From positions 704,001-768,000 of the forward strand of contig CBDAOY010000005.1 of NCBI GenBank assembly GCA_965198225.1: a DNA stretch of 64,000 bases. Direction: 5' to 3'. This DNA is from Terriglobia bacterium (lineage in GTDB: Bacteria > Acidobacteriota > Terriglobia > 20CM-2-55-15). A program made the translations under genes and the position numbers. Shown here piece by piece: positions 37,282 through 58,050 of the stretch. The notes under the pieces are model-generated. The model made no database searches. It was not told the DNA's origin and worked only from the letters and a program-made list of their open reading frames with translations. Positions within the stretch are counted from its first letter, which is position 1. Every line of letters begins with the position of its first letter.

Positions 37282-39294
37282 CTACCATTCATACCGCAAG
37301 CCCAACCGGAAAATCCTCGGATTCAGGATCTGCGTTGCGCGGCCGAACCGCGGCACCGTGTTGCCGTTGCGATCCCGGACCAGGTTGCTGAAGGTTTCAA
37401 CTCCCAGGACGGTGTTGGCGTTGAAGATGTTGAACAGATCGAACATCGCCTGAACACTCTGGCGATCGCCGATCGCGAAAGTCTTCTCAAACCGGATGTT
37501 GGTCAGGTGGACGCTCGGGCGATGGTACGTTCCCTCGGGTTCCATGATGATGACCTGGCTGCCCTGCGCGAGACCCTGGGCGCTCGTGCAGTCTCCGTTC
37601 GTCACCGTCCGACAACGGGGATCGTCCGCTTCCCGTCGGAGCAGGTCCGGAGTGAACCGCACGCGCCGGTTGTACTCGACGCCTTTCTGGGCGTTGTAGG
37701 TACCCGATACCGAAATCCCTTTCGGCAGTTCGTATTGACCCAGTAGCTTGAACGACCACAGGTCTATGTGACGATTCCCGCCGTAGACCAGGTTGTTGGG
37801 GTCGGGTCCGACATCGAACGGATCGTTGCGTTTCGTCCAGTCGACACCCGTGATCATCATCCAACCGTTGCTCATCCGTTTTCGTGCACCGAACTCGATC
37901 GTCGAGAAGTGGCCGCCGCGGTCGAGATTCGTTACGAGGTTCTCCCCCGGGCGTGGTGATCGGGTTCGTTCGTAGATCGTGACCAATCGATCGTCGCCCG
38001 AGCCGACCGCTCCATCAGGCCCGCGATCCACCGCCTGAACGGGCCGGTAGGTCAGCGTGGGGTGGGCCTGGTCGATGCGGTCCCACAGGTTGTGTTGGAT
38101 TTTTCGGACAAAGTTCGCGTTCACCGCGAAATCCTGGAACAGTTCGTGTTCGATTCCTACCGTGTACTCGTCGGTGTACTGGTTCGTCAGATTCGGATCC
38201 ACGTCAGCGGGGTTCGGAGTGCCGGTGATCCGCTCGATGTTGGAGTTCGCGATCAGTTCGTGCGTGATCGGGAGGGTTCCATCCCAGGTGTACTGTGTCG
38301 TCACCGGGAGAGAATTCGGATTGCCGAGTTGCGCCACCCTGAAGCTCGTGATGTCGCTGAACCGGCCATAGCTGGCCTTCAGAGCTGTTCTCGTGTCGCC
38401 GAACACGTCGTAGACGAGGCTGATACGCGGCACGAGATCGTTGAACGTCGCGTAGTGGGTCCTGGGGTAGGTGATCTTTGTGGCGAAAGGGCCGGTTCCA
38501 GGATTCCCCTGTTCAGGTGCGAAGTTGGTGTAACGGTCGAATCGGAGCCCGAGGTTCAACGTGAGGCGGTTGTTCAGCTGCCACTTGTCCTGCACAAAAA
38601 AGTAGTTGTGGTACAGGGAGTTGTGGGACTTGAACGGTGTGGTTGTCGTCTGGAAAAAGTCGGGTACACCGCCTCTGGAAAAGAGCCAGATAGCGCCGAG
38701 TGTTCCCGGCGATGCGGGCGCCTCGTTCCAGGTGAACCGGGAGTCTTCCCACTGGAGGGCGTACCCCACCTTGACGTCGTGGTCGCCGGTGAAGTAACTC
38801 CAGTTCACGTTCCATTGCCAGCGGCGCTCCTGAGTGTGAAACGGGAATTGCAGCCCCCCCCGCTGGGCACCCGTGAACAGATCCCGCGTCGGCGTCTGGC
38901 TGACGTGAGACTTGGCGGAAACATTGACCCCAGTCGTGTTGGCGGAGACATCCAGAGTTGATCTACCGCTCAACATGGCCATCCACTGGAACTTGTACTT
39001 CCAGGCCCAGGCGTCCTGTTTTCTGGTCGACTCGAGGGTCCTGTTTTTTGCGCCCGGTCCGCTGCCACCGACGAACGGCTGGAACTTCCGGGTCGCCCCG
39101 CCGCTGAAAACCAGCGAATGGTCCGGGCTGATCTGGTGGTTGAGCTTCAGGGTGTAGTTCTGGAGCCGGGTCGTGAAGGTCCCTCCCGGCGTGAGGTCGT
39201 TCTGCAGGACCTGGGTCTGTAGAGCCGAGTACTGATCTCGAACCGAGACGAACCACCACAACTTGTCCCGGACGATGGGGCCTCCGGCATTGCC
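37282..39294 (-). pseudogene. 3' part of an Oar-like TonB-dependent receptor, cut by a group II intron
   Basis: 'GGPIVRDKLWWF', 'FVQDKWQLNNRLTLNLGLRFD', 'PRIFRLGLRYEW'; 5' part not found in the window. Confidence 0.88.
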
Positions 39295-39454
39295 GTAGAG
39301 TCGACGACTGGCGCGGTGGCGGTAGGCAAAGGGGGTAGCTGTTGCCGGTGGCTTTCGCCGATTCCGGTGCCTCACTCCTCGCCGTGGCTTCGTTTCCAGT
39401 CGCCGCTCATCGAACCGGACATGCGGATTTCCCGCATCCGGCTCTCGGACGAGA

Positions 39455-40795
39455 TCATGCCTTCGCCCACGGAAAGCTCGCCGTACGCGGCGCAAGATGC
39501 GTGAGCCCGTAATCGGACCAGAGCCGCTCGGACGGGAAGCGCACGTGTTTCCCGGTCCGCACCTTGTGCTTACGGCAGAGCCACTGGCGCGGCCGCCGGG
39601 TCGCGTGTTGATCAATCGCCTTGTAGGCCGGGCGGACCTGTCCCAGGATGAAATAGTTCGCCCAACCGATCAGCAACCGGTTGAGGCGTCCCACTACGAC
39701 TCCCGACGGCAGGAGCACGTGGCGCGGCGCGGTCAACTCGCTCACACGACGGCAGATGCTCTGGACGCTTTCCCGGCTCGGATGTGTGCCTATGTAGGCG
39801 GCACCCGTACCCGGCCGGTAGTTGCAACCGATCCGGTAGCCGAGGAACGTCATCGATTCCTCCGGCACCCGGCAGCAGCGGGTCTTCTCAACGTTCATCG
39901 CCAACTTCAGACGTTTTATCAGGGCTTCGACCGCCGCTAGCATCACCGCTGCCGGCGCGCGACCGAGAACCGCGAAGTCATCCGCGTAGTTGACGATTTC
40001 CGCCTTGAAGTGCCGGGCGTAGCCCAGCACCTTCCAGCCCAGAATGAAGCGCCGCATGTAGATGTTGCTGAACAGCGGCGAGATCGGAGACCCTTGCGGG
40101 GTCCCCTTCCGCTCGTGACGCGCCCGGTTCGTGCGGCGGCGACCGCCGCGCCCGTCGTCCTCTTCCACCGCCATCTCCAGCCACGCCTTGACCCAGCCCA
40201 ACAGCCGCCCGTCGCTCACACGCCGGGCGATGGACTTCATCAGGTCCGCGTGCGGAATCTGGCCGAAGTAGTCCGACAGGTCGGCGTCCACCACCTCCCG
40301 GTGGCCCGTCGTCAGCAGCCGATGCACGCGCCTGACTGCGTCATGCGCGTCTCGGCCCGGCCGGTACGCATACTGCTCCGGTTGCAGGTCGGCTTCGAAG
40401 ATCGGCGATAACACCAGCATCGCCGCCGTCTGCACCACCCGATCCCGGAGACACGGAATGCCCAACGGCCGGAACTTCCCTCGTTGCTTCTTCGGGATGA
40501 GAACCTGCCGAACCGCATGCGGCCGATAGGTCCCTTCCTTCAGGTCCCGCGCCAGTGCTCCCAGCCACCGGTCCACCCCGAACGCATCGATGTCCGCGAC
40601 CGTCTCGCCGTCCACCCCGGCCGCGCCGCCGTTGCGGCGCACGGCCTGCCAGGCGACTGCGAGCACGTCGTCGCGCCACACCTTGTCGCTCAGAGAGTAG
40701 AACCGGAAGCCCAGAGCTTCCTTCGCTTTCGCATGTAGCGCCGTCTGGAGTCGCTGAACTCTCTCCGAGGCTGTTAGGCTCTCGCCAGTCCTCAT
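39455..40795 (-). CDS. ltrA: Group II intron reverse transcriptase/maturase
   Basis: GAAGVDG, RPLGIP, GTPQGSPISPL, YADD; no endonuclease domain. Confidence 0.93.
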   Translation of the reverse strand: MRTGESLTASERVQRLQTALHAKAKEALGFRFYSLSDKVWRDDVLAVAWQAVRRNGGAAGVDGETVADIDAFGVDRWLGALARDLKEGTYRPHAVRQVLIPKKQRGKFRPLGIPCLRDRVVQTAAMLVLSPIFEADLQPEQYAYRPGRDAHDAVRRVHRLLTTGHREVVDADLSDYFGQIPHADLMKSIARRVSDGRLLGWVKAWLEMAVEEDDGRGGRRRTNRARHERKGTPQGSPISPLFSNIYMRRFILGWKVLGYARHFKAEIVNYADDFAVLGRAPAAVMLAAVEALIKRLKLAMNVEKTRCCRVPEESMTFLGYRIGCNYRPGTGAAYIGTHPSRESVQSICRRVSELTAPRHVLLPSGVVVGRLNRLLIGWANYFILGQVRPAYKAIDQHATRRPRQWLCRKHKVRTGKHVRFPSERLWSDYGLTHLAPRTASFPWAKA

Positions 40796-40972
40796 GTCCC
40801 TTCCTCCGTCATGCGCTGCTCTCGAACTGAGGTCCCTTCCCTCCACCGGCATTACCTGATGGGATGGACTCCTCCTTGATGACTGAGTCGGCATCGTAGT
40901 GCCAAAGTCATTGTGAAGCCTCGCGATGGTGCGGGCTAAACACGAGGACGTGTAAACAAGAAGGAGTCCGAG

Positions 40973-42007
40973 ATGAAGAGTAAAACGATCGCAGTGGATC
41001 TGGCAAAGAATGTTTTCGAGATTGGGATTTCCGACCGCCCCGGGCAGATGACGAAGACATACCGTTTAAGCCGGGGAAAGTTCTTGTCGTTTTTTGCGAA
41101 TCAGGAGCTGGCGACGGTCGTGATGGAAGCCTGCAGTGCCGCCCATCACTGGGGACGAGAGATCCAGAAACTGGGGCACACAGTGGTACTGATTTCACCG
41201 CAGTATGTCCGGCCCTACGTACCGAGGAGTAAGACGGATCGGGCGGATGTAAAAGGGTTGCTGGAGGCCCACCGGAATGCCGATATTCGGGCGGTACCCA
41301 TTAAGACGGTGGCGCAACAGCAACTCACCGCCCTGCACCGCATCCGGTCGACCTGGATGCGGACCCGGACGGCGCGCATCAACATGGTGCGGGGGCTGCT
41401 GGGAGAGTTTGGGCTCGTGCTGCCGACGGGAGCCCGGCGGCTGGTGCCCGGAGTCATGGGGTTGATCGAAGATGCGGATGTTGAGATCCCCATGACCGTA
41501 CGCGTCATGTTCTCGGAAGTGTGCACCGAAATCCGCGAGCTGGAGGCACGCATTCAATCGGTGGAGCGGGAGTTGGAAGCCCTGGCCCGTCAGATGCCCG
41601 AGGTGGCCCGTCTGCGCTCGATCCCTGGAATCGGGCTGTTGACTTCCACGGCGATGGTAGGTTTTGTCGGTGACCCCCGACGGTTTCGATCCTGTCGCCA
41701 CTTTGCCAGTTATCTGGGACTCACCCCGCGTGAGCGTTCGAGCGGAAACCGGCGTCGGCTGGGAGCGATCAGCAAACAAGGCAACGTCTACCTGCGGATG
41801 CTGCTCATACACGGTGGCCGCACTCTGCTATGGAGTGCGCATCGAAAAGGGGCGCAACCTTCGGCTCTGCAGAAATGGGGTCTCCGTCTCCACACACTCC
41901 GCGGGCACAACACGGCCACGGTTGCTTTAGCCAACAAACTGGCCCGCACGGTTTGGGCCGTCTGGACACAGGACACGGCGTACGAGGCTGACCGACGGGC
42001 GGCCTGA
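40973..42007 (+). CDS. IS110 family DEDD recombinase/transposase
   Basis: AVDLAK, VMEAC, KTDRAD, 'GLTPRERSSG', 'VALANKLAR'. Confidence 0.95.
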   Translation: MKSKTIAVDLAKNVFEIGISDRPGQMTKTYRLSRGKFLSFFANQELATVVMEACSAAHHWGREIQKLGHTVVLISPQYVRPYVPRSKTDRADVKGLLEAHRNADIRAVPIKTVAQQQLTALHRIRSTWMRTRTARINMVRGLLGEFGLVLPTGARRLVPGVMGLIEDADVEIPMTVRVMFSEVCTEIRELEARIQSVERELEALARQMPEVARLRSIPGIGLLTSTAMVGFVGDPRRFRSCRHFASYLGLTPRERSSGNRRRLGAISKQGNVYLRMLLIHGGRTLLWSAHRKGAQPSALQKWGLRLHTLRGHNTATVALANKLARTVWAVWTQDTAYEADRRAA

Positions 42008-42034
42008 CACCATGACTGTAGGAACATCCTTTCA

Positions 42035-42230
42035 GTAGACTGCGACGACGTTCGAGTTGATGACGTACCGGTCAGACCGGCGCGGGGAAACGCCGGAGAA
42101 GCCGTGGCCCCTGGAGGCCGTTTACCCGGTTGGCACCCCGCGCGCGAATTTCATCATGGCCCGGAACTCAAACGTTCCATTCGAGAGGCCGAAGATACGG
42201 ATGCAGTCGATCTGTCACTCAACTCGAAAA
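42035..42230 (+). ncRNA. Predicted bridge/seekRNA of element 1
   Basis: Structured region after the transposase with loops matching target and donor; RNA ends approximate. Confidence 0.75.
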
Positions 42231-42648
42231 TCAAATATCAGGATGCTGAAAAGAATCTTCGGGAAAAGGATATGGGACAGCTGCGCCTACTTGACAGGAG
42301 GAGTCCAGATACGGCTTTCTTGGTACTGCGGACCTCTCCGCCACCCTGTCGGCCCAACCTGACCCTCGCGGGCTGTCGGTTGGCGCGTGCCACGCCACCG
42401 GCAGGGCTTCCCGTGTTGCGTCCAATCCCCTCTTCCATACATGCCACCGCCCAATACCCCGGCGGAACCAGTCGGTGCTCGCGTCGCTCGCTTCCCGACC
42501 GCTGGCAGCCTTCCCCGTTTCAACGGCGGGTCGGCTTCCGCATTGTGCGTTTCGATGGAGTGGACGCCCCCGCTCCCCGGCGGCAGAATGGGCCGGGTCA
42601 GCAGAACGCACAAGGGGTGCGTTCAGAACACGAGAGAGGGAGGGATAC

Positions 42649-43695
42649 ATGGGCAAGGTGATCACCATCATCGGCATCGACATTTCAAAGAGGTACTTCC
42701 AACTGCATGGAGCCACGGCAAGCGGTGAGCCTGTGCTGCGCAGGCAGCTCACGCGCCCGAAGCTACTCGAGTTCCTCGCCAAGCAGCCTGTCTGCCGGGT
42801 CGTGATGGAAGTGTGCGGCAGCGCCCATCATTGGGGGCGGATGATCCAGGAGATCGGCCACGAGGTCCGCCTGATTCCCCCGATGTATGTGAAGCCGTAC
42901 GTCAAGAGGCAGAAGAATGACGCCAACGACGCGGGAGCGATCGTCGAGGCGGCCCAGCGGCCGACGATGCGGTTCGTGGCCGTGAAGACCGAGGAGGAGC
43001 AGGCACGATCGGTGGTGTTCCGGGCCCGGGCACTGCTGGTGCGCCAGCGGACACAGACGATCAACGCGCTGCGGGGTCATCTCGCGGAGTTTGGACTCGT
43101 CGCTCCGCTTGGGACCCACAACGTCGGGAGGCTGGAGGAGGTGTTCGCGGAGCGTGAAGAGTGTTTCCCGGCGCTGGTGCCTCCCGCCATACGCCGCCTC
43201 ATCGAGCGGACCCACGATCTGGATGCGGAGATCGATGAGCTGGACCGGGAGATCCGTCGCATCGTGAGGGAAGATGAGGCGCTCGGGCGCCTGATGACGA
43301 TTCCAGGGGTGGGAGAGCTCACGGCAATGGCGGTGCACGCGTTCGCGCCACCGATGGAGAGCTTCCGTAATGGACGTGACTTTGCGGCATGGGTCGGGAT
43401 CACGCCGCGTGAATCCTCGACGGGTGGCCGCCAACGGCTGGGGGGGATCACAAAGATGGGACAGCGCGACATCCGGAGGCTCCTGTACCTGGGAGCGACG
43501 GCGGTCATCTCGAGTGCCATCCGGCGGAGGGAGGTCACCGATCCCTGGCTTGGCCGGATGCTGGACGAAAAGCCGAGGAAGGTGGTTGCGGTGGCTCTGG
43601 CCAACAGGATGGCACGCATCATCTGGGCCATGACGGTGAAGGAGGAGAGCTACAGGGCACGGGGAATGACAAAGGCCGTTGCGCCTGCAGCGTAG
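42649..43695 (+). CDS. IS110 family DEDD recombinase/transposase
   Basis: GIDISK, VMEVCG, KNDANDA, 'GITPRESSTGG', 'VALANRMAR'. Confidence 0.95.
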   Translation: MGKVITIIGIDISKRYFQLHGATASGEPVLRRQLTRPKLLEFLAKQPVCRVVMEVCGSAHHWGRMIQEIGHEVRLIPPMYVKPYVKRQKNDANDAGAIVEAAQRPTMRFVAVKTEEEQARSVVFRARALLVRQRTQTINALRGHLAEFGLVAPLGTHNVGRLEEVFAEREECFPALVPPAIRRLIERTHDLDAEIDELDREIRRIVREDEALGRLMTIPGVGELTAMAVHAFAPPMESFRNGRDFAAWVGITPRESSTGGRQRLGGITKMGQRDIRRLLYLGATAVISSAIRRREVTDPWLGRMLDEKPRKVVAVALANRMARIIWAMTVKEESYRARGMTKAVAPAA

Positions 43696-43839
43696 GGTTG
43701 CGAGTCAGATCAGTGGAGCGAAGAAGGGTCGGCGAGATCAGAAACGCGGAGAAGAGAGAGGAAATCGTCCGGCTGGCGGCCTGGGCGGATGGACACGGGC
43801 CACGGAGGTTCCAACTGGAGAGTGCAAGCAGGACGTCGG

Positions 43840-44005
43840 ACAAGGTAGGGGCAAACGGTCGACAAGACGGGATCGGAAAACCCAGTAGGCCTCGAAGGGC
43901 CATCGAGCCCGTCGTTTCGATTTGGATCCGATCTCACGAACACCATACGGGCCCGCGGCCAGCAAGTGCCGCATCAAGAGGCCGCACATACGACCGTACC
44001 TGACC
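43840..44005 (+). ncRNA. Predicted bridge/seekRNA of element 2
   Basis: Loops AGGCCTCG/CGTTTCGA match the target; CCATACG/CACATACGA match the donor junction; RNA ends approximate. Confidence 0.78.
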
Positions 44006-44255
44006 TGAATGCCACCGATCCTCGGTTCGAAGTCAGGCTTGCCAACCAGGGGGGCGTCCACATACGAGGCCTGCTCGGCGTTTACTCGCGTTGTGGCCTG
44101 TGTGGTCGCTGAGCCGCCCGAGGCGGCCCTTTGTCATCGGAGTGCTTCAGACGATGTTGTTACCTCCACCATCCGCTCCGATTGCTACCGACTGGAGCGA
44201 CAGTTGCCGGGCGGGATTCGCACCCGCTGAGGATTGGCGCCTTCTCACGGCGCGG

Positions 44256-53635: not shown

Positions 53636-53949
53636 GGTTTTGATCTGTTGTTAAACTCTCACCGGAATATTCCGGTTTTTTCCGCTGCACATCCATTCCC
53701 GCGCCCAGGGCTCGGAGCTTCTCTCGCCTCCGGACCGCGTCTTTGAGGAGATTTCGTCTGGACCTCGGGGCGCTATCATCCTGGACCCGGAGCAATTGTG
53801 CGCACTACCCCGGCTTTTCAAGAGTCCTCACTTGAAGAGTCAAACCTGTTTCACGATGCCGGCACTTTGCCAGCTACCGGTGACCGCTGCTGCGGGAGAA
53901 TTCTGGCGGGAACCCCGGAGGGCTGGGCCGGATCCGTAAGGGCGGGAAT

Positions 53950-54325
53950 TCCTATCTACCGGATGTTCTTGTGGTCGGCGCACGGACACAGTATCACGTC
54001 GGCGACTCTGCTGAAGTGGAGGCTCCGCATTCATGAAGAATGCGGGCATAACCAGGCGGCGGTGGCGCTCGCCAACAAGCTGTGCCGACGATCTGCGCCG
54101 CCTGGAAGCGCGATTCCGACTATCCGGAGGCCAGACCGGATTTCGTTGCAGCAGGCCGCACTGACGTTCCTGTGCTGGCGTATCGGTCGGTCGGCGCGGG
54201 CACACGCCGACAAACTTCAGGCCCCTTCGGGGCTGTCATTTGACGCCTGGCGCCGCGTGCGACCTTGCATCGTGGCCTGAAATCCTACAATTCCACTGGA
54301 GCGGCTGGAGCTGCGGATGCAGTCG
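53950..54325 (+). pseudogene. Degraded IS110/IS1111 element: transposase C-terminus plus non-coding scaffold
   Basis: 'GHNQAAVALANKL'; 54178-54325 aligns with 42063-42209. Confidence 0.75.
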
Positions 54326-54330
54326 TCGGC

Positions 54331-54672
54331 CAATACCTCGGCCACGCTGCGCTGAAGGGCCCGATCTTGAACACAGGGCACGCCCAGGGGACGTTTCTCC
54401 TGCTTGCCGGGCTTGGGGATATACACCCGCCGAATCGGCGGAGCGCGATATCCCTTCTGGTGAACAGACTGGAGCATTGGCTCCACCCAGACTCCGAATT
54501 CCTCCTTCGCCTCCGGTACCCTCTGACCATCACATCCGGGAGCCGTGTTGCGGGGCACTTGACACAGGTTCTTCCACACACGCTCTCGGGTGACATGATG
54601 CGCCAGTGACGTGAACCGGAGCTTTGGCTCACTCCGAGCTTTCGCCGCTATTCGTTCCAGTTTCGTTTCCAT
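54331..54672 (-). pseudogene. Truncated intron B reverse transcriptase
   Basis: METKLERIAAKA...RFTSLAHH, APGCDG, RRVYIPKPGK, RPLGVP; stops before YADD. Confidence 0.88.
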
Positions 54673-55704: not shown

Positions 55705-56167
55705 TATCAGCCAGTCTGACTTCCGACAGGCCTTCGGGTCTTCCTCGCGTTGTTGGCTTGTCCAACCCTACAAGCTCCGCTTGAACCTGACGGATCTCCC
55801 TTGTTCCCATGAAATCCTTGGTTGCATGCCGGCGGTACGAACCCCGGAAGGTTGCCATTGCGTGCCCTGCGATTCCGCCTTCCCCGGCGGTACGAACCCC
55901 GGAAGCACCCCAGGGCACGCCATTGCGTGCCCTGCGATTCCGCCTTCCCCCAGCGACAGGGTCGGCTACTTCAACCACGTTCGATCAACCACGTTCGATT
56001 TCGGGGCTATCTTTCCGTTCACTGGTGTTCCGGCCTACTCCCTCCCTGTCTACGCTTCGCAGTGTCCGTCACCGACCACCACGCAAGACTCGGTACGTGG
56101 CTGCCGGCTAGGCTCTGCCACGGCCGCCATCTCAGGCGACTGGATCTCATGCGCTTGCAAGGCGCAA

Positions 56168-58050
56168 CGCTCATCGAACCGGACATGCAGATTTCCCGCA
56201 TCCGGCTCTCGGACGAGATCATGCCTTCGCCCACGGAAAGCTCGCCGTACGCGGCGCAAGATGCGTGAGCCCGTAATCGGACCAGAGCCGCTCGACCGGG
56301 AAGCGCACGTGTTTCCCGGTCCGCACCTTGTGCTTACGGCAGAGCCACTGGCGCAGCCGCCGAGTTGCGTGCCGGTCAATCGCCTCGTAGGCCGGGCTGA
56401 CCTGTCCCAGGGTGAAGTAGTTCGCCCAACCGGTCAGCAACCGGTTGAGGCGTCCCACTACGACCTCCGGCGGCAGGAGCGCGTGACGCGGCGTGGTCAA
56501 CTCGCTCACACGACGGCAGATGCTCTGGACGCTTTCCCGGCTCGGACGTGTGCCTATGTAGGCGGCACCCGTGTCCGGCCGGTAGTTGCAACCAATCCGG
56601 TAGCCGAGGAACGTCATCGATTCCTCCGGCACCCGGCAGCAGCGGGTCTTCTCAACGTTCATCGCCAACTTCAGACGTTTTATCAGGGCTTCGACCGCCG
56701 CTAGCATTACCGCTGCCGGCGCGCGACCGAGAACCGCGAAGTCATCCGCGTAGTTGACGATTTCCGCCTTGAAGTGCCGGGCGTAGCCCAGCACCTTCCA
56801 GCCCAGAATGAAGCGCCGCATGTAGATGTTGCTGAACAGCGGCGAGATCGGAGACCCTTGCGGGGTCCCCTTCCGCTCGTGACGCGCCCGGTTCGTGCGG
56901 CGGCGACCGCCGCGCCCGTCGTCCTCTTCCACCGCCATCTCCAGCCACGCCTTGACCCAGCCCAACAGCCGCCCGTCGCTCACGCGCCGGGCGATGGACT
57001 TCATCAGGTCCGCGTGCGGAATCTGGCCGAAGTAGTCCGACAGGTCGGCGTCCACCACCTCCCGGTGGCCCGTCCTCAGCAGCCGATGCACGCGCCTGAT
57101 TGCGTCATGCGCGTCTCGGCCCGGCCGGTACGCATACTGCTCCGGTTGCAGGTCGGCTTCGAAGATCGGCGATAACACCAGCATCGCCGCCGTCTGCACC
57201 ACCCGATCCCGGAGACACGGAATGCCCAACGGCCGGAACTTCCCTCGTTGCTTCTTCGGGATGAGAACCTGCCGAACCGCATGCGGCCGATAGGTCCCTT
57301 CCTTCAGGTCCCGCGCCAGTGCTCCCAGCCACCGGTCTACCCCAAGCGCCTCGATGTCTCCGACCGTCTCGCCGTCCACCCCGGCCGCGCCGCCGTTGCG
57401 GCGCACGGCCTGCCAGGCGACTGCGAGCACGTCGTCGCGCCACACCTTGTCGCTCAGAGAGTAGAACCGGAAGCCCAGAGCTTCCTTCGCTTTCGCATGT
57501 AGCGCCGTCTGGAGTCGCTGAACTCTCTCCGAGGCTGTTAGGCTCTCGCCAGTCCTCATGTCCCTTCCTCCGTCATGCGCTGCTCTCGAACTGAGGTCCC
57601 TTCCCTCCACCGGCATTACCCGGCTTCCCTGGTACTGCGGACCTCTCCGCCACCCTGTCGGCCCAACCTGACCCTCGCGGGCTGTCGGTTGGCGCATGCC
57701 ACGCCACCGGCAGGGCTTCCCGTGTTGCGTCCATCCCCCCCTTCCACACGTGCCGCCGCTACTACCCCGGCGGAACCGGTCGGTGCTCGCGTCGCTCGCT
57801 TCCCGACCGCTGGCAGCCTTCCCCGTATTCCGGGCGGATCGGCTTCCGCATCGCTTCGTTACGAGGCCTGCGCAGCGTTCACATCGTTGCGGCCCGCGTG
57901 GTCGCTGAACCGCCCAGGGCGGCCCTTTGTCATCGGAGTGCTTCAGCCGATGTCGTTACCTCCATCGTCCGCTCCGACTGCTACCGGCTGGAGCGACAGT
58001 TGCCGGGCGGGGTTCGCACCCGCTGGGGAATGGCGCCTTTCACGGCGCAC
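56168..58050 (-). mobile_element. Group II intron A copy 2 (class F-like), domain VI displaced
   Basis: 5' GTGCG at 58050; domain V at about 56175-56208; near-identical to copy 1. Confidence 0.92.
56219..57559 (-). CDS. ltrA: Group II intron reverse transcriptase/maturase
   Basis: Same motifs as 39455-40795, including YADD. Confidence 0.93.
   Translation of the reverse strand: MRTGESLTASERVQRLQTALHAKAKEALGFRFYSLSDKVWRDDVLAVAWQAVRRNGGAAGVDGETVGDIEALGVDRWLGALARDLKEGTYRPHAVRQVLIPKKQRGKFRPLGIPCLRDRVVQTAAMLVLSPIFEADLQPEQYAYRPGRDAHDAIRRVHRLLRTGHREVVDADLSDYFGQIPHADLMKSIARRVSDGRLLGWVKAWLEMAVEEDDGRGGRRRTNRARHERKGTPQGSPISPLFSNIYMRRFILGWKVLGYARHFKAEIVNYADDFAVLGRAPAAVMLAAVEALIKRLKLAMNVEKTRCCRVPEESMTFLGYRIGCNYRPDTGAAYIGTRPSRESVQSICRRVSELTTPRHALLPPEVVVGRLNRLLTGWANYFTLGQVSPAYEAIDRHATRRLRQWLCRKHKVRTGKHVRFPVERLWSDYGLTHLAPRTASFPWAKA

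Follow-up and report, generated by a model that had tools for sequence, protein, structure and literature searches.

The insertion sequence and its limits

We analysed a stretch of 64,000 nucleotides (nt) from a Terriglobia bacterium (contig CBDAOY010000005.1 of assembly GCA_965198225.1, positions 704,001 to 768,000), which we call the window. At its positions 40857-42311, on the plus strand, lies an insertion sequence (IS) of 1455 base pairs (bp) that is of the IS1111 type and sits antisense in a group II intron (intron copy 1); a second copy of this intron in the same window (intron copy 2) has the corresponding site unoccupied. We are highly confident that this is an active or recently active element of the IS1111 group, IS110 family, and that its DEDD transposase is guided by an RNA from the 304-nt region 3' of its gene. 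The programmed target is a motif of about 10-13 nt, (C)NTTACC-CGG(G)CT, and not the intron as such. The features of the locus are collected in Table 1.

The limits of the element are given by intron copy 2, which is colinear with copy 1 minus exactly 1455 bases. The element starts with TGATGGGA, its TG at 40857, and ends with ...CCAGATA, the AGATA reaching 42311 and being followed by CG. Two RNA-library runs each contain a contig of 97 nt in which 40856 is followed directly by 42312, so that exactly the same 1455 bases are skipped; its shorter side has only 22 letters, a length that calls for caution. The comparison of filled and empty sites shows that the element is inserted into one specific sequence, in one orientation and without target duplication. 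The original prediction had read the empty site as ATTACC-CG-GCTT at 57615-57626, and all of its letters and coordinates hold.

The transposase gene is preceded by 116 nt (40857-40972) and followed by 304 nt (42008-42311) of non-coding DNA. Its product matches the profiles PF01548 (DEDD_Tnp_IS110; 34.3 bits, residues 7-144) and PF02371 (84.7 bits, residues 212-288), as well as the NCBIfam model NF033542, "IS110 family RNA-guided transposase" (308 bits, cut-off 140). The translation contains GLTPRERSSG, which corresponds to the motif GL-P----S(T)G; this motif and a length of 330-350 amino acids (aa), within which the 344 aa found here fall, are given for IS1111-family transposases in PMC11187229. 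Subterminal inverted repeats of 7-17 bp are reported for IS1111 elements in PMC11208160. Taken together, the protein domains, the inverted repeats and the longer 3' non-coding region give the layout of the IS1111 group of the IS110 family.

For the TTGACA near the right end, we found no -10 partner at the canonical spacing, and a scan for promoters and terminators gave nothing meaningful. Among the RNA-library contigs that were mapped to the element there was no circle junction. At the left end, a stretch of the repeat (40866-40883) is also 83% complementary to 40952-40969, which holds the ribosome-binding site of the transposase gene, AAGGAG; in read-through transcripts, a hairpin could mask translation.

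Table 1. Window coordinates of the element, its predicted guide RNA, its target sites and its host intron
Feature	Position	Strand	Remarks
Host group II intron, copy 1	39293..44253	-	Rfam matches to D1-D4 and D5-D6; protein with RVT_1 and GIIM; homology with C5:605483-610250 stops at these limits
Left half of occupied target, ATTACC (intron copy 1)	40851..40856	.	
Left terminal extension, TGATGGGA	40857..40864	+	Outside the inverted repeat; first 5 bases complementary to donor-loop word 42152-42156
Left subterminal inverted repeat, 12 bp	40865..40876	+	100% complementary to 42296-42307; 8 nt from left terminus
Transposase gene, 344 aa	40973..42007	+	Single long open reading frame (ORF); N-terminal DEDD (RuvC-like) and C-terminal Transposase_20 domains
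Predicted bridge/seekRNA core	42059..42219	+	Closing stem, small hairpin, target-binding and donor-binding loop modules; from alignment, consensus structure and model R1 (163 bits)
Target-binding module	42080..42143	+	Outer stem 42080-42087/42136-42143; base stem 42092-42096/42130-42134; helices 3 and 4 with compensatory changes
Target loop, 5' strand, AGAAGCCG	42097..42104	+	Complementary to right flank top strand CGGCTTCT; variable columns 75-82 of alignment A1
Hairpin closing the target loop (UGGCC ... GGCCG)	42105..42120	+	Helix 5; 5 pairs, invariant in 12/12 sequences
Target loop, 3' strand, UUUACCCGG	42121..42129	+	8/9 bases equal target top strand TTACC-CGG; variable columns 100-110 of A1
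Donor loop, 5' word, UUUCAUCA	42149..42156	+	CAUCA complementary to first five bases of element; CATCAT invariant in 12/12 relatives
Stem-loop closing the donor loop (GGCC...GGCC, inner GGAAC/GUUCC hairpin)	42158..42190	+	Helices 7 and 8; GGCC at 42158-42161 and 42187-42190
Donor loop, 3' word, AGAUACGG	42193..42200	+	Last five bases of element plus the genomic CGG that follows; AGATACG invariant in 12/12 relatives
TTGACA, possible -35 box of a putative junction promoter	42291..42296	+	15 nt from right terminus; in 9/11 aligned relatives
Right subterminal inverted repeat, 12 bp	42296..42307	+	4 nt from right terminus
Right half of occupied target, CGGCTT (intron copy 1)	42312..42317	.	
Unoccupied target, ATTACC-CG-GCTT (intron copy 2)	57615..57626		ATTACC 57615-57620, CG 57621-57622, GCTT 57623-57626

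A predicted guide RNA with two loops

The fold of the 304-nt 3' region consists of a long closing stem (around 42049-42064/42214-42228), a small hairpin and two modules, each of which is an internal loop closed by a conserved hairpin containing GGCC. We aligned this region with those of eleven relatives that have different guides (alignment A1, 12 sequences) and built a covariance model, R1, from the 12 sequences; its E-values are rough. The stems and both donor words are conserved in A1; apart from the hairpin loops, the letters vary in two blocks, one on each strand of the first internal loop. The consensus structure has 50 pairs, with 98% of the cells paired, as counted on the same alignment from which the structure was derived; when the partners are slid, pairing falls to 30-46%. 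Seven pairs have compensatory changes, that is, both sides have changed, and none of 500 shuffles reaches that number. Since several invariant G-U pairs would be A-C on the opposite strand, the RNA should be read from the strand of the transposase gene (+).

The words that match the target are exactly the two strands of one conserved internal loop. AAGCCG (42099-42104) and TTACCCGG (42122-42129), which had been noticed around a GGCC hairpin from the sequence alone, were confirmed base for base, and the two GGCC lie at 42106-42109 and 42116-42119. The same is true of CATCA (42152-42156) and AGATACG (42193-42199), whose coordinates, letters and match to the ends of the element we could reproduce. 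We estimated how often such words arise by chance. If the reverse-complement 6-mer has to be followed by the 8-mer, in that order and within 60 nt, 126 of 1,000,000 random 12-mers from the genome give the same pair in the 3' region; shuffling the region 20,000 times gave both donor words in order 26 times. In the element, the word complementary to the top strand lies 5' of the word complementary to the bottom strand, an order that PMC11187229 reports for IS1111 seekRNAs and describes as the reverse of the IS110 type.

How the RNA would act can be outlined as follows. By analogy with ISEc11, ISKpn4 and ISPa11 (PMC11187229) and with IS621 (PMC11208160, PMC13626964), the 3' region would be transcribed together with the transposase gene and the RNA bound by the transposase. 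The 5' strand of the first loop (42097-42104) would pair with CGGCTT(C), on the target's top strand at the right side of the insertion point, and the 3' strand (42121-42129) with the bottom strand across the insertion point, TTACC-CGG, so that the two would overlap on CG(G), as for seekRNAs. The pairing of both strands would set the site, the exact position and the orientation of the insertion. In the second loop, the invariant words match the element's own ends, TGATG on the left and AGATA on the right, the latter together with the CGG next to it, and would hold the donor ends. Recombination would then put the element between ...TTACC and CGG... with no target duplication. The movement through a circle and the pairing between RNA and DNA are taken from the published work on relatives and are presumed to apply here as well. 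With the best site in a multicopy intron, upstream of its reverse-transcriptase gene, and a weaker one in the transposase gene of an older lineage of IS5-like elements, an element of this kind would come to nest in mobile DNA.

Landing sites and the host intron

In the whole genome (9 contigs, 6.4 Mb) we found four copies of the element, which are 100% identical, and one relative at 72%. Two of the copies are hosted by the group II intron at one and the same point, namely the copy in the window and that at C5:608366-609820. The other two (C5:838646-840100 and C4:355363-356817) are hosted by an IS5-like element of 1.1 kb, which has about seven copies in the genome and encodes a 325-aa DDE_Tnp_1 transposase; both insertions fall inside this transposase gene, in the same orientation. 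Across these two unrelated host elements, all four copies stand between TTACC and CGG(G)CT. The original prediction had named copies at unrelated sites as the result that would speak against it. With the flanks of all genomic copies tabulated, what differs is the host element, and the short motif is the same, an outcome that favours the prediction.

The identical element is also present in two other genomes (rows L010, L012, L024, L025 and L040 of our collection of relatives). These rows stand for four places, with L025 and L040 overlapping, and the places are in the IS5-like element or in a third context (L012), where the flanks are CCTTACC | CGGCTTT; none is in an intron. The two genomes, G024 (L010, L024) and G015 (L012, L025), are from another genus of the same family, their elements are 1455 bp long and their transposases 100% identical, which suggests either recent horizontal transfer or shared or mis-binned contigs.

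In the intron, the target lies at positions of about 425-436, counted from the GUGCG start of intron copy 2 (58050, minus strand), and 56-67 nt upstream of the start codon of the intron protein (57559). No other site fits the two loop strands as well: the left match runs over 8 contiguous bases, and the right one over 7 in the copy-2 type or 6 in the copy-1 type. The idea of an RNA-programmed insertion is supported, with the refinement that the programmed target is the motif and not the intron as such; to call the site a structural region of the intron is tentative. The guide words match the site and co-vary with the flanks. A 5-bp hairpin can be predicted at the target in the intron RNA; it is no better than those of shuffles (z = -0.16) and we have not used it as evidence. 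Intron copy 2 is a free target, as had been proposed, and so are four more intron copies and at least one site outside repeats.

The IS5-like element provides a natural comparison. All five uninterrupted copies have TTGCC-CGGGCT at the site and both interrupted ones have TTACC. In an alignment of the seven copies, the five empty ones form a young, near-identical set, and the two filled ones an older lineage with about 20 shared variants, including the A of TTACC. Hence, a difference of one base in the part matched by the guide separates filled (2/2) from empty copies (0/5 filled). A conversion of the TTACC flanks during insertion was considered and rejected, since the filled copies belong to this older lineage. 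Variants in the left flank of IS5-like copy A recur in another genome (L010, L024). In its right flank copy A has one private deletion of a single base, by which the match to the guide is improved.

We also found what we treat as a relic, a solo 56-nt fragment of the right end of a related element (C6:561411-561465, minus strand, 82% identity), which adjoins CCGGGTAAT, the reverse complement of the left half of the target of our element. There is no transposase within 2.5 kb of this fragment and no intron homology near it.

Does the choice of mobile DNA reflect more than the motif? One could suppose that the element and its relatives in Terriglobia are hyper-parasites, with guides tuned to fixed points of selfish elements such as the intron and the IS5-like transposase gene; we put this forward tentatively and consider it rather doubtful. 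Potentially, the element recognises a short motif only, and the intron and the IS5-like element were hit because both are multicopy and contain it, with no selection for the targeting of mobile elements. To this account we give somewhat less than an even chance. The use of the motif in three unrelated contexts, the four places outside introns in the two other genomes and the filling of only two of seven intron sites are all in its favour. On the other hand, both loop strands fit the intron site best and the IS5-like sites fit the right guide poorly, IS1111 relatives favour repeated or mobile DNA according to PMC11187229, and a second, unrelated element of the IS110 family likewise occupies one fixed position in this intron, in two of its copies.

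This second element (42556-44064, with an ORF at about 42670-43695, plus strand) is separated from the first by 245 bp, within one intron copy, and its protein is 37% identical to that of the first. It has an inverted repeat, GTGGACGCCCCC / GGGGGCGTCCAC, and a long 3' region with a match to R1 (43850-44009, 40.1 bits). At the same intron position it is found in another copy of the intron, at C4:145764-147272.

A related question is how often the intron was entered. The two intron-borne copies, in the window and at C5:608366-609820, might go back to one insertion, after which the intron moved by retrohoming with the element as cargo. The homology of the two loci does end exactly at the ends of the intron (39293 and 44253 in the window), and the identity is 99.9% over 3152 bp, with the element included. 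However, an empty intron at C6:7515 has 3 differences in 1431 from copy B, which makes these two as close as the members of the filled pair (2 in 1430), and independent insertions into sister introns fit equally well; the four copies of the element, all identical, carry no timing signal. We regard a single insertion followed by retrohoming as possible but not probable.

This intron family is a frequent landing place. The sister intron copy has an extra insertion of about 1.3 kb near its 3' end (C5:605593/606913 as compared to 39403/39404 in the window) that is absent from the window copy, and other intron copies are also broken at several points. The intron flanks of the element (40574-40869 and 42276-42571) have summed contig depths of hundreds to thousands in two RNA-library runs, and the element inside has 5-29; no more than a hint of abundant RNA from uninterrupted introns can be taken from this, as each depth adds up several copies and organisms. 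Intron copy 2 is followed directly downstream, beside a repeat common to several loci, by an Rfam match to group-II-D1-D4-6 (55889-56132, minus strand), possibly a fragment of another intron that adjoins copy 2.

Retargeting and kinship

The 72% relative (C4:92181-93570) has kept the scaffold and the donor words, while both strands of its target loop are replaced and its flanks differ to match: the left flank ends with TGTCAG and the right one begins with GGAAAC after an apparent loss of 3 nt at the junction. A protein search of 60 related genomes gave matches in 12 besides this one. From 66 loci we parsed 46 full-length rows, several of which are the same place twice. These rows represent 11 guide types; the 72% relative, missed by the parsing pattern, comes in addition. 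The proteins of relatives with changed guides and flanks are 61-77% identical.

In most guide types, the reverse complement of the right guide matches the right flank over 7-9 contiguous bases, and the left guides match over 4-7. In a matrix of the longest exact runs, cognate pairs of guide and flank exceed non-cognate ones (for this element, 5.0+7.0 as compared to about 3+3). For six independent groups with unrelated targets, only the identity assignment reaches the observed sum, that is, one out of 720 permutations. Relatives with other loop letters are found at other, matching sites.

The original prediction had further noted that the two junction cores differ, with TG on the left and CG on the right, and this difference holds among the relatives. 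TG is the start of the element in all 46 rows, and the right dinucleotide is CG in 36 rows, CA in 7, GG in 2 and another in 1. As the left TG is constant and the right dinucleotide varies among copies of one guide type, TG travels with the element and the right dinucleotide belongs to the target. The unequal junctions may mean that the crossover has no shared core, or that a mismatch at the first base of the core is tolerated. Nearly all types have CGG beside the insertion point, and the invariant donor word mirrors it, which suggests that it is a fixed, non-programmable part of the site.

A number of observations count against an RNA guide of the kind we propose. Besides the common origin of structure and pair counts in A1, the 304-nt region folded as a single sequence only mildly beats its shuffles (z = -2.03; 4 of 100 fold as well). 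The donor words are invariant in 12/12 relatives, and so are the element ends, so that no co-variation can come from the donor loop; one variable position of the left end, read by eye, fits its guide base in 9 of 12 types. Moreover, the 3' donor word is a better fit to the right junction as integrated, AGATA|CGG, than to a simple joint of the two ends. In Rfam, a collection of curated models, no family matches the RNA of the element at the gathering score or with E <= 1. RNA-library contigs cover the element at a depth of 5-29 in two runs (X15, X16) and of 0-3.5 in two others (X17, X18), and the 3' non-coding region is covered by one contig of 918 nt in X15 and by none in X16; a small RNA cannot be seen in such contigs, the libraries may contain DNA, and low or absent cover is uninformative either way. 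The runs labelled as sponge metagenome contained only 23-24% of the words, with an element depth of 0-3.5.

With respect to the sites, occupancy is low: of the seven intron sites with a perfect 12-nt match five are empty, including copy 2. One perfect 12-nt match that lies outside repeats (C6:862774) is empty as well, as are five further matches of 10 nt. The IS5-like sites fit the guide for the right flank poorly (CGGGCT as compared to CGGCTT), which indicates that full pairing is not required. Finally, for the L016 type, the variable 5-nt part of the left guide is exact in one of seven flank sets, the others being off by 1-2 letters.

That the site is chosen by the protein alone, or by DNA-DNA pairing of the 3' region with the target, so that the loop letters are not read as RNA, seems very improbable to us: while sequence cannot tell an RNA guide from the same letters as DNA, and no RNA was observed in the library contigs, the letters of guide and flank change together in relatives whose proteins are 61-77% identical, they stand in loops of a scaffold that is kept by compensatory changes and by G-U pairs possible on one strand only, and for members of the family the RNA has been purified with the transposase and was reprogrammable (PMC11187229).

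A guide RNA also agrees with the kinship of the element. In this genome, R1 finds six places: the four copies, the 72% relative and 54174-54334 in the window. The last of these (plus strand, 66.2 bits) has altered donor-loop words and only a short ORF before it (53798-54280); no transposase match at E <= 1e-60 lies near it, and it is likely to be a truncated relative or an orphan guide RNA. Outside this genome, R1, the covariance model that the original prediction had called for, matches IS1111 relatives that include IS5075 and integron-associated elements. In total, it matches elements whose proteins are 33-46% identical, with 28.6-94.4 bits. The highest score belongs to an element from Gemmatimonadota (94.4 bits), followed by an integron-borne element of P. 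aeruginosa (50.8 bits, rough E of 2.3e-9) and one of Klebsiella (35.4 bits, rough E of 4.3e-6). The match to the 3' region of IS5075, just after the gene, is weak (32.9 bits, rough E of 1.4e-5), and more distant elements have 28.6-32.1 bits. Plasmid-borne IS1111 relatives have proteins that are 33-44% identical over nearly the full length. For IS5075/IS4321 the alignment covers the full-length protein (residues 6-342, 33.5% identity), and these elements, too, insert into another mobile element. Their target differs from the one here and reportedly consists of the terminal repeats of Tn21-family transposons (Partridge and Hall, 2003).

The closest parallels in print are ISEc11, ISKpn4 and ISPa11 (Siddiquee et al. 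2024, PMC11187229); the likeness is drawn from the text descriptions of their seekRNAs. They share with our element a DEDD/PF02371 transposase of some 340 aa that carries the GL-P----S(T)G motif, inverted repeats in subterminal position, a long non-coding region downstream of the gene, and two short words for the two target strands that overlap at the insertion point. Retargeting between relatives of about 72% identity and a preference for repeated or mobile DNA are common to both as well. Their targets, however, are an attC site or REP, whereas here they are the group II intron and the IS5-like transposase gene; the host here belongs to Terriglobia. For members of the family, co-purification of the RNA with the transposase and its reprogramming are described in the same paper.

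IS621 is a further known system. According to PMC11208160 (Durrant et al. 2024) and PMC13626964, it also has one RNA with internal loops that bind target and donor, the two strands of each loop pairing with the top and the bottom DNA strand, respectively, but this RNA lies 5' of the gene, the order of its guide words is reversed and a CT core is common to donor and target, whereas the left and right dinucleotides are unequal here. Its inverted repeats are of 2-3 bp, as compared to 12 bp here. For IS1111 elements, PMC11208160 predicts a bridge RNA in 93% of cases, located in the right end.

Since the RNA-guided choice of targets by IS1111 elements was published in 2024 already (PMC11187229, PMC11208160), our element belongs to the already known seekRNA/bridge RNA kind and leaves the known mechanism unchanged. 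In a search for literature on IS1111 together with group II introns, no such insertion is described in titles and the starts of abstracts, which is not proof of absence. As far as the literature search shows, with supplements and ISfinder outside it, what is new are the particular targets, the two elements of the IS110 family in one intron and the guides that have been retargeted throughout a clade. The nesting of three kinds of mobile elements is documented here, with two IS110-family elements in a group II intron and one of them also in an IS5-like element.

In a more general sense, we see that raw sequence can reveal where an RNA-guided insertion sequence is aimed, and that such a reading can be tested on the element's own copies and relatives. 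The Terriglobia clade offers about a dozen naturally retargeted guides on one conserved scaffold, and is thus comparative material for the less-studied IS1111 type, whose rules (the register, the fixed bases and the unequal junction dinucleotides) differ from those of IS621. If the element and its relatives are indeed hyper-parasites, they would have multicopy safe harbours at their disposal and, inside the intron, might also be carried along by retrohoming. In that case, with at least six retargeted guides on one scaffold, the guide code of the IS1111 type, that is, its register, its fixed CGG and its unequal TG/CG junctions, would become readable.

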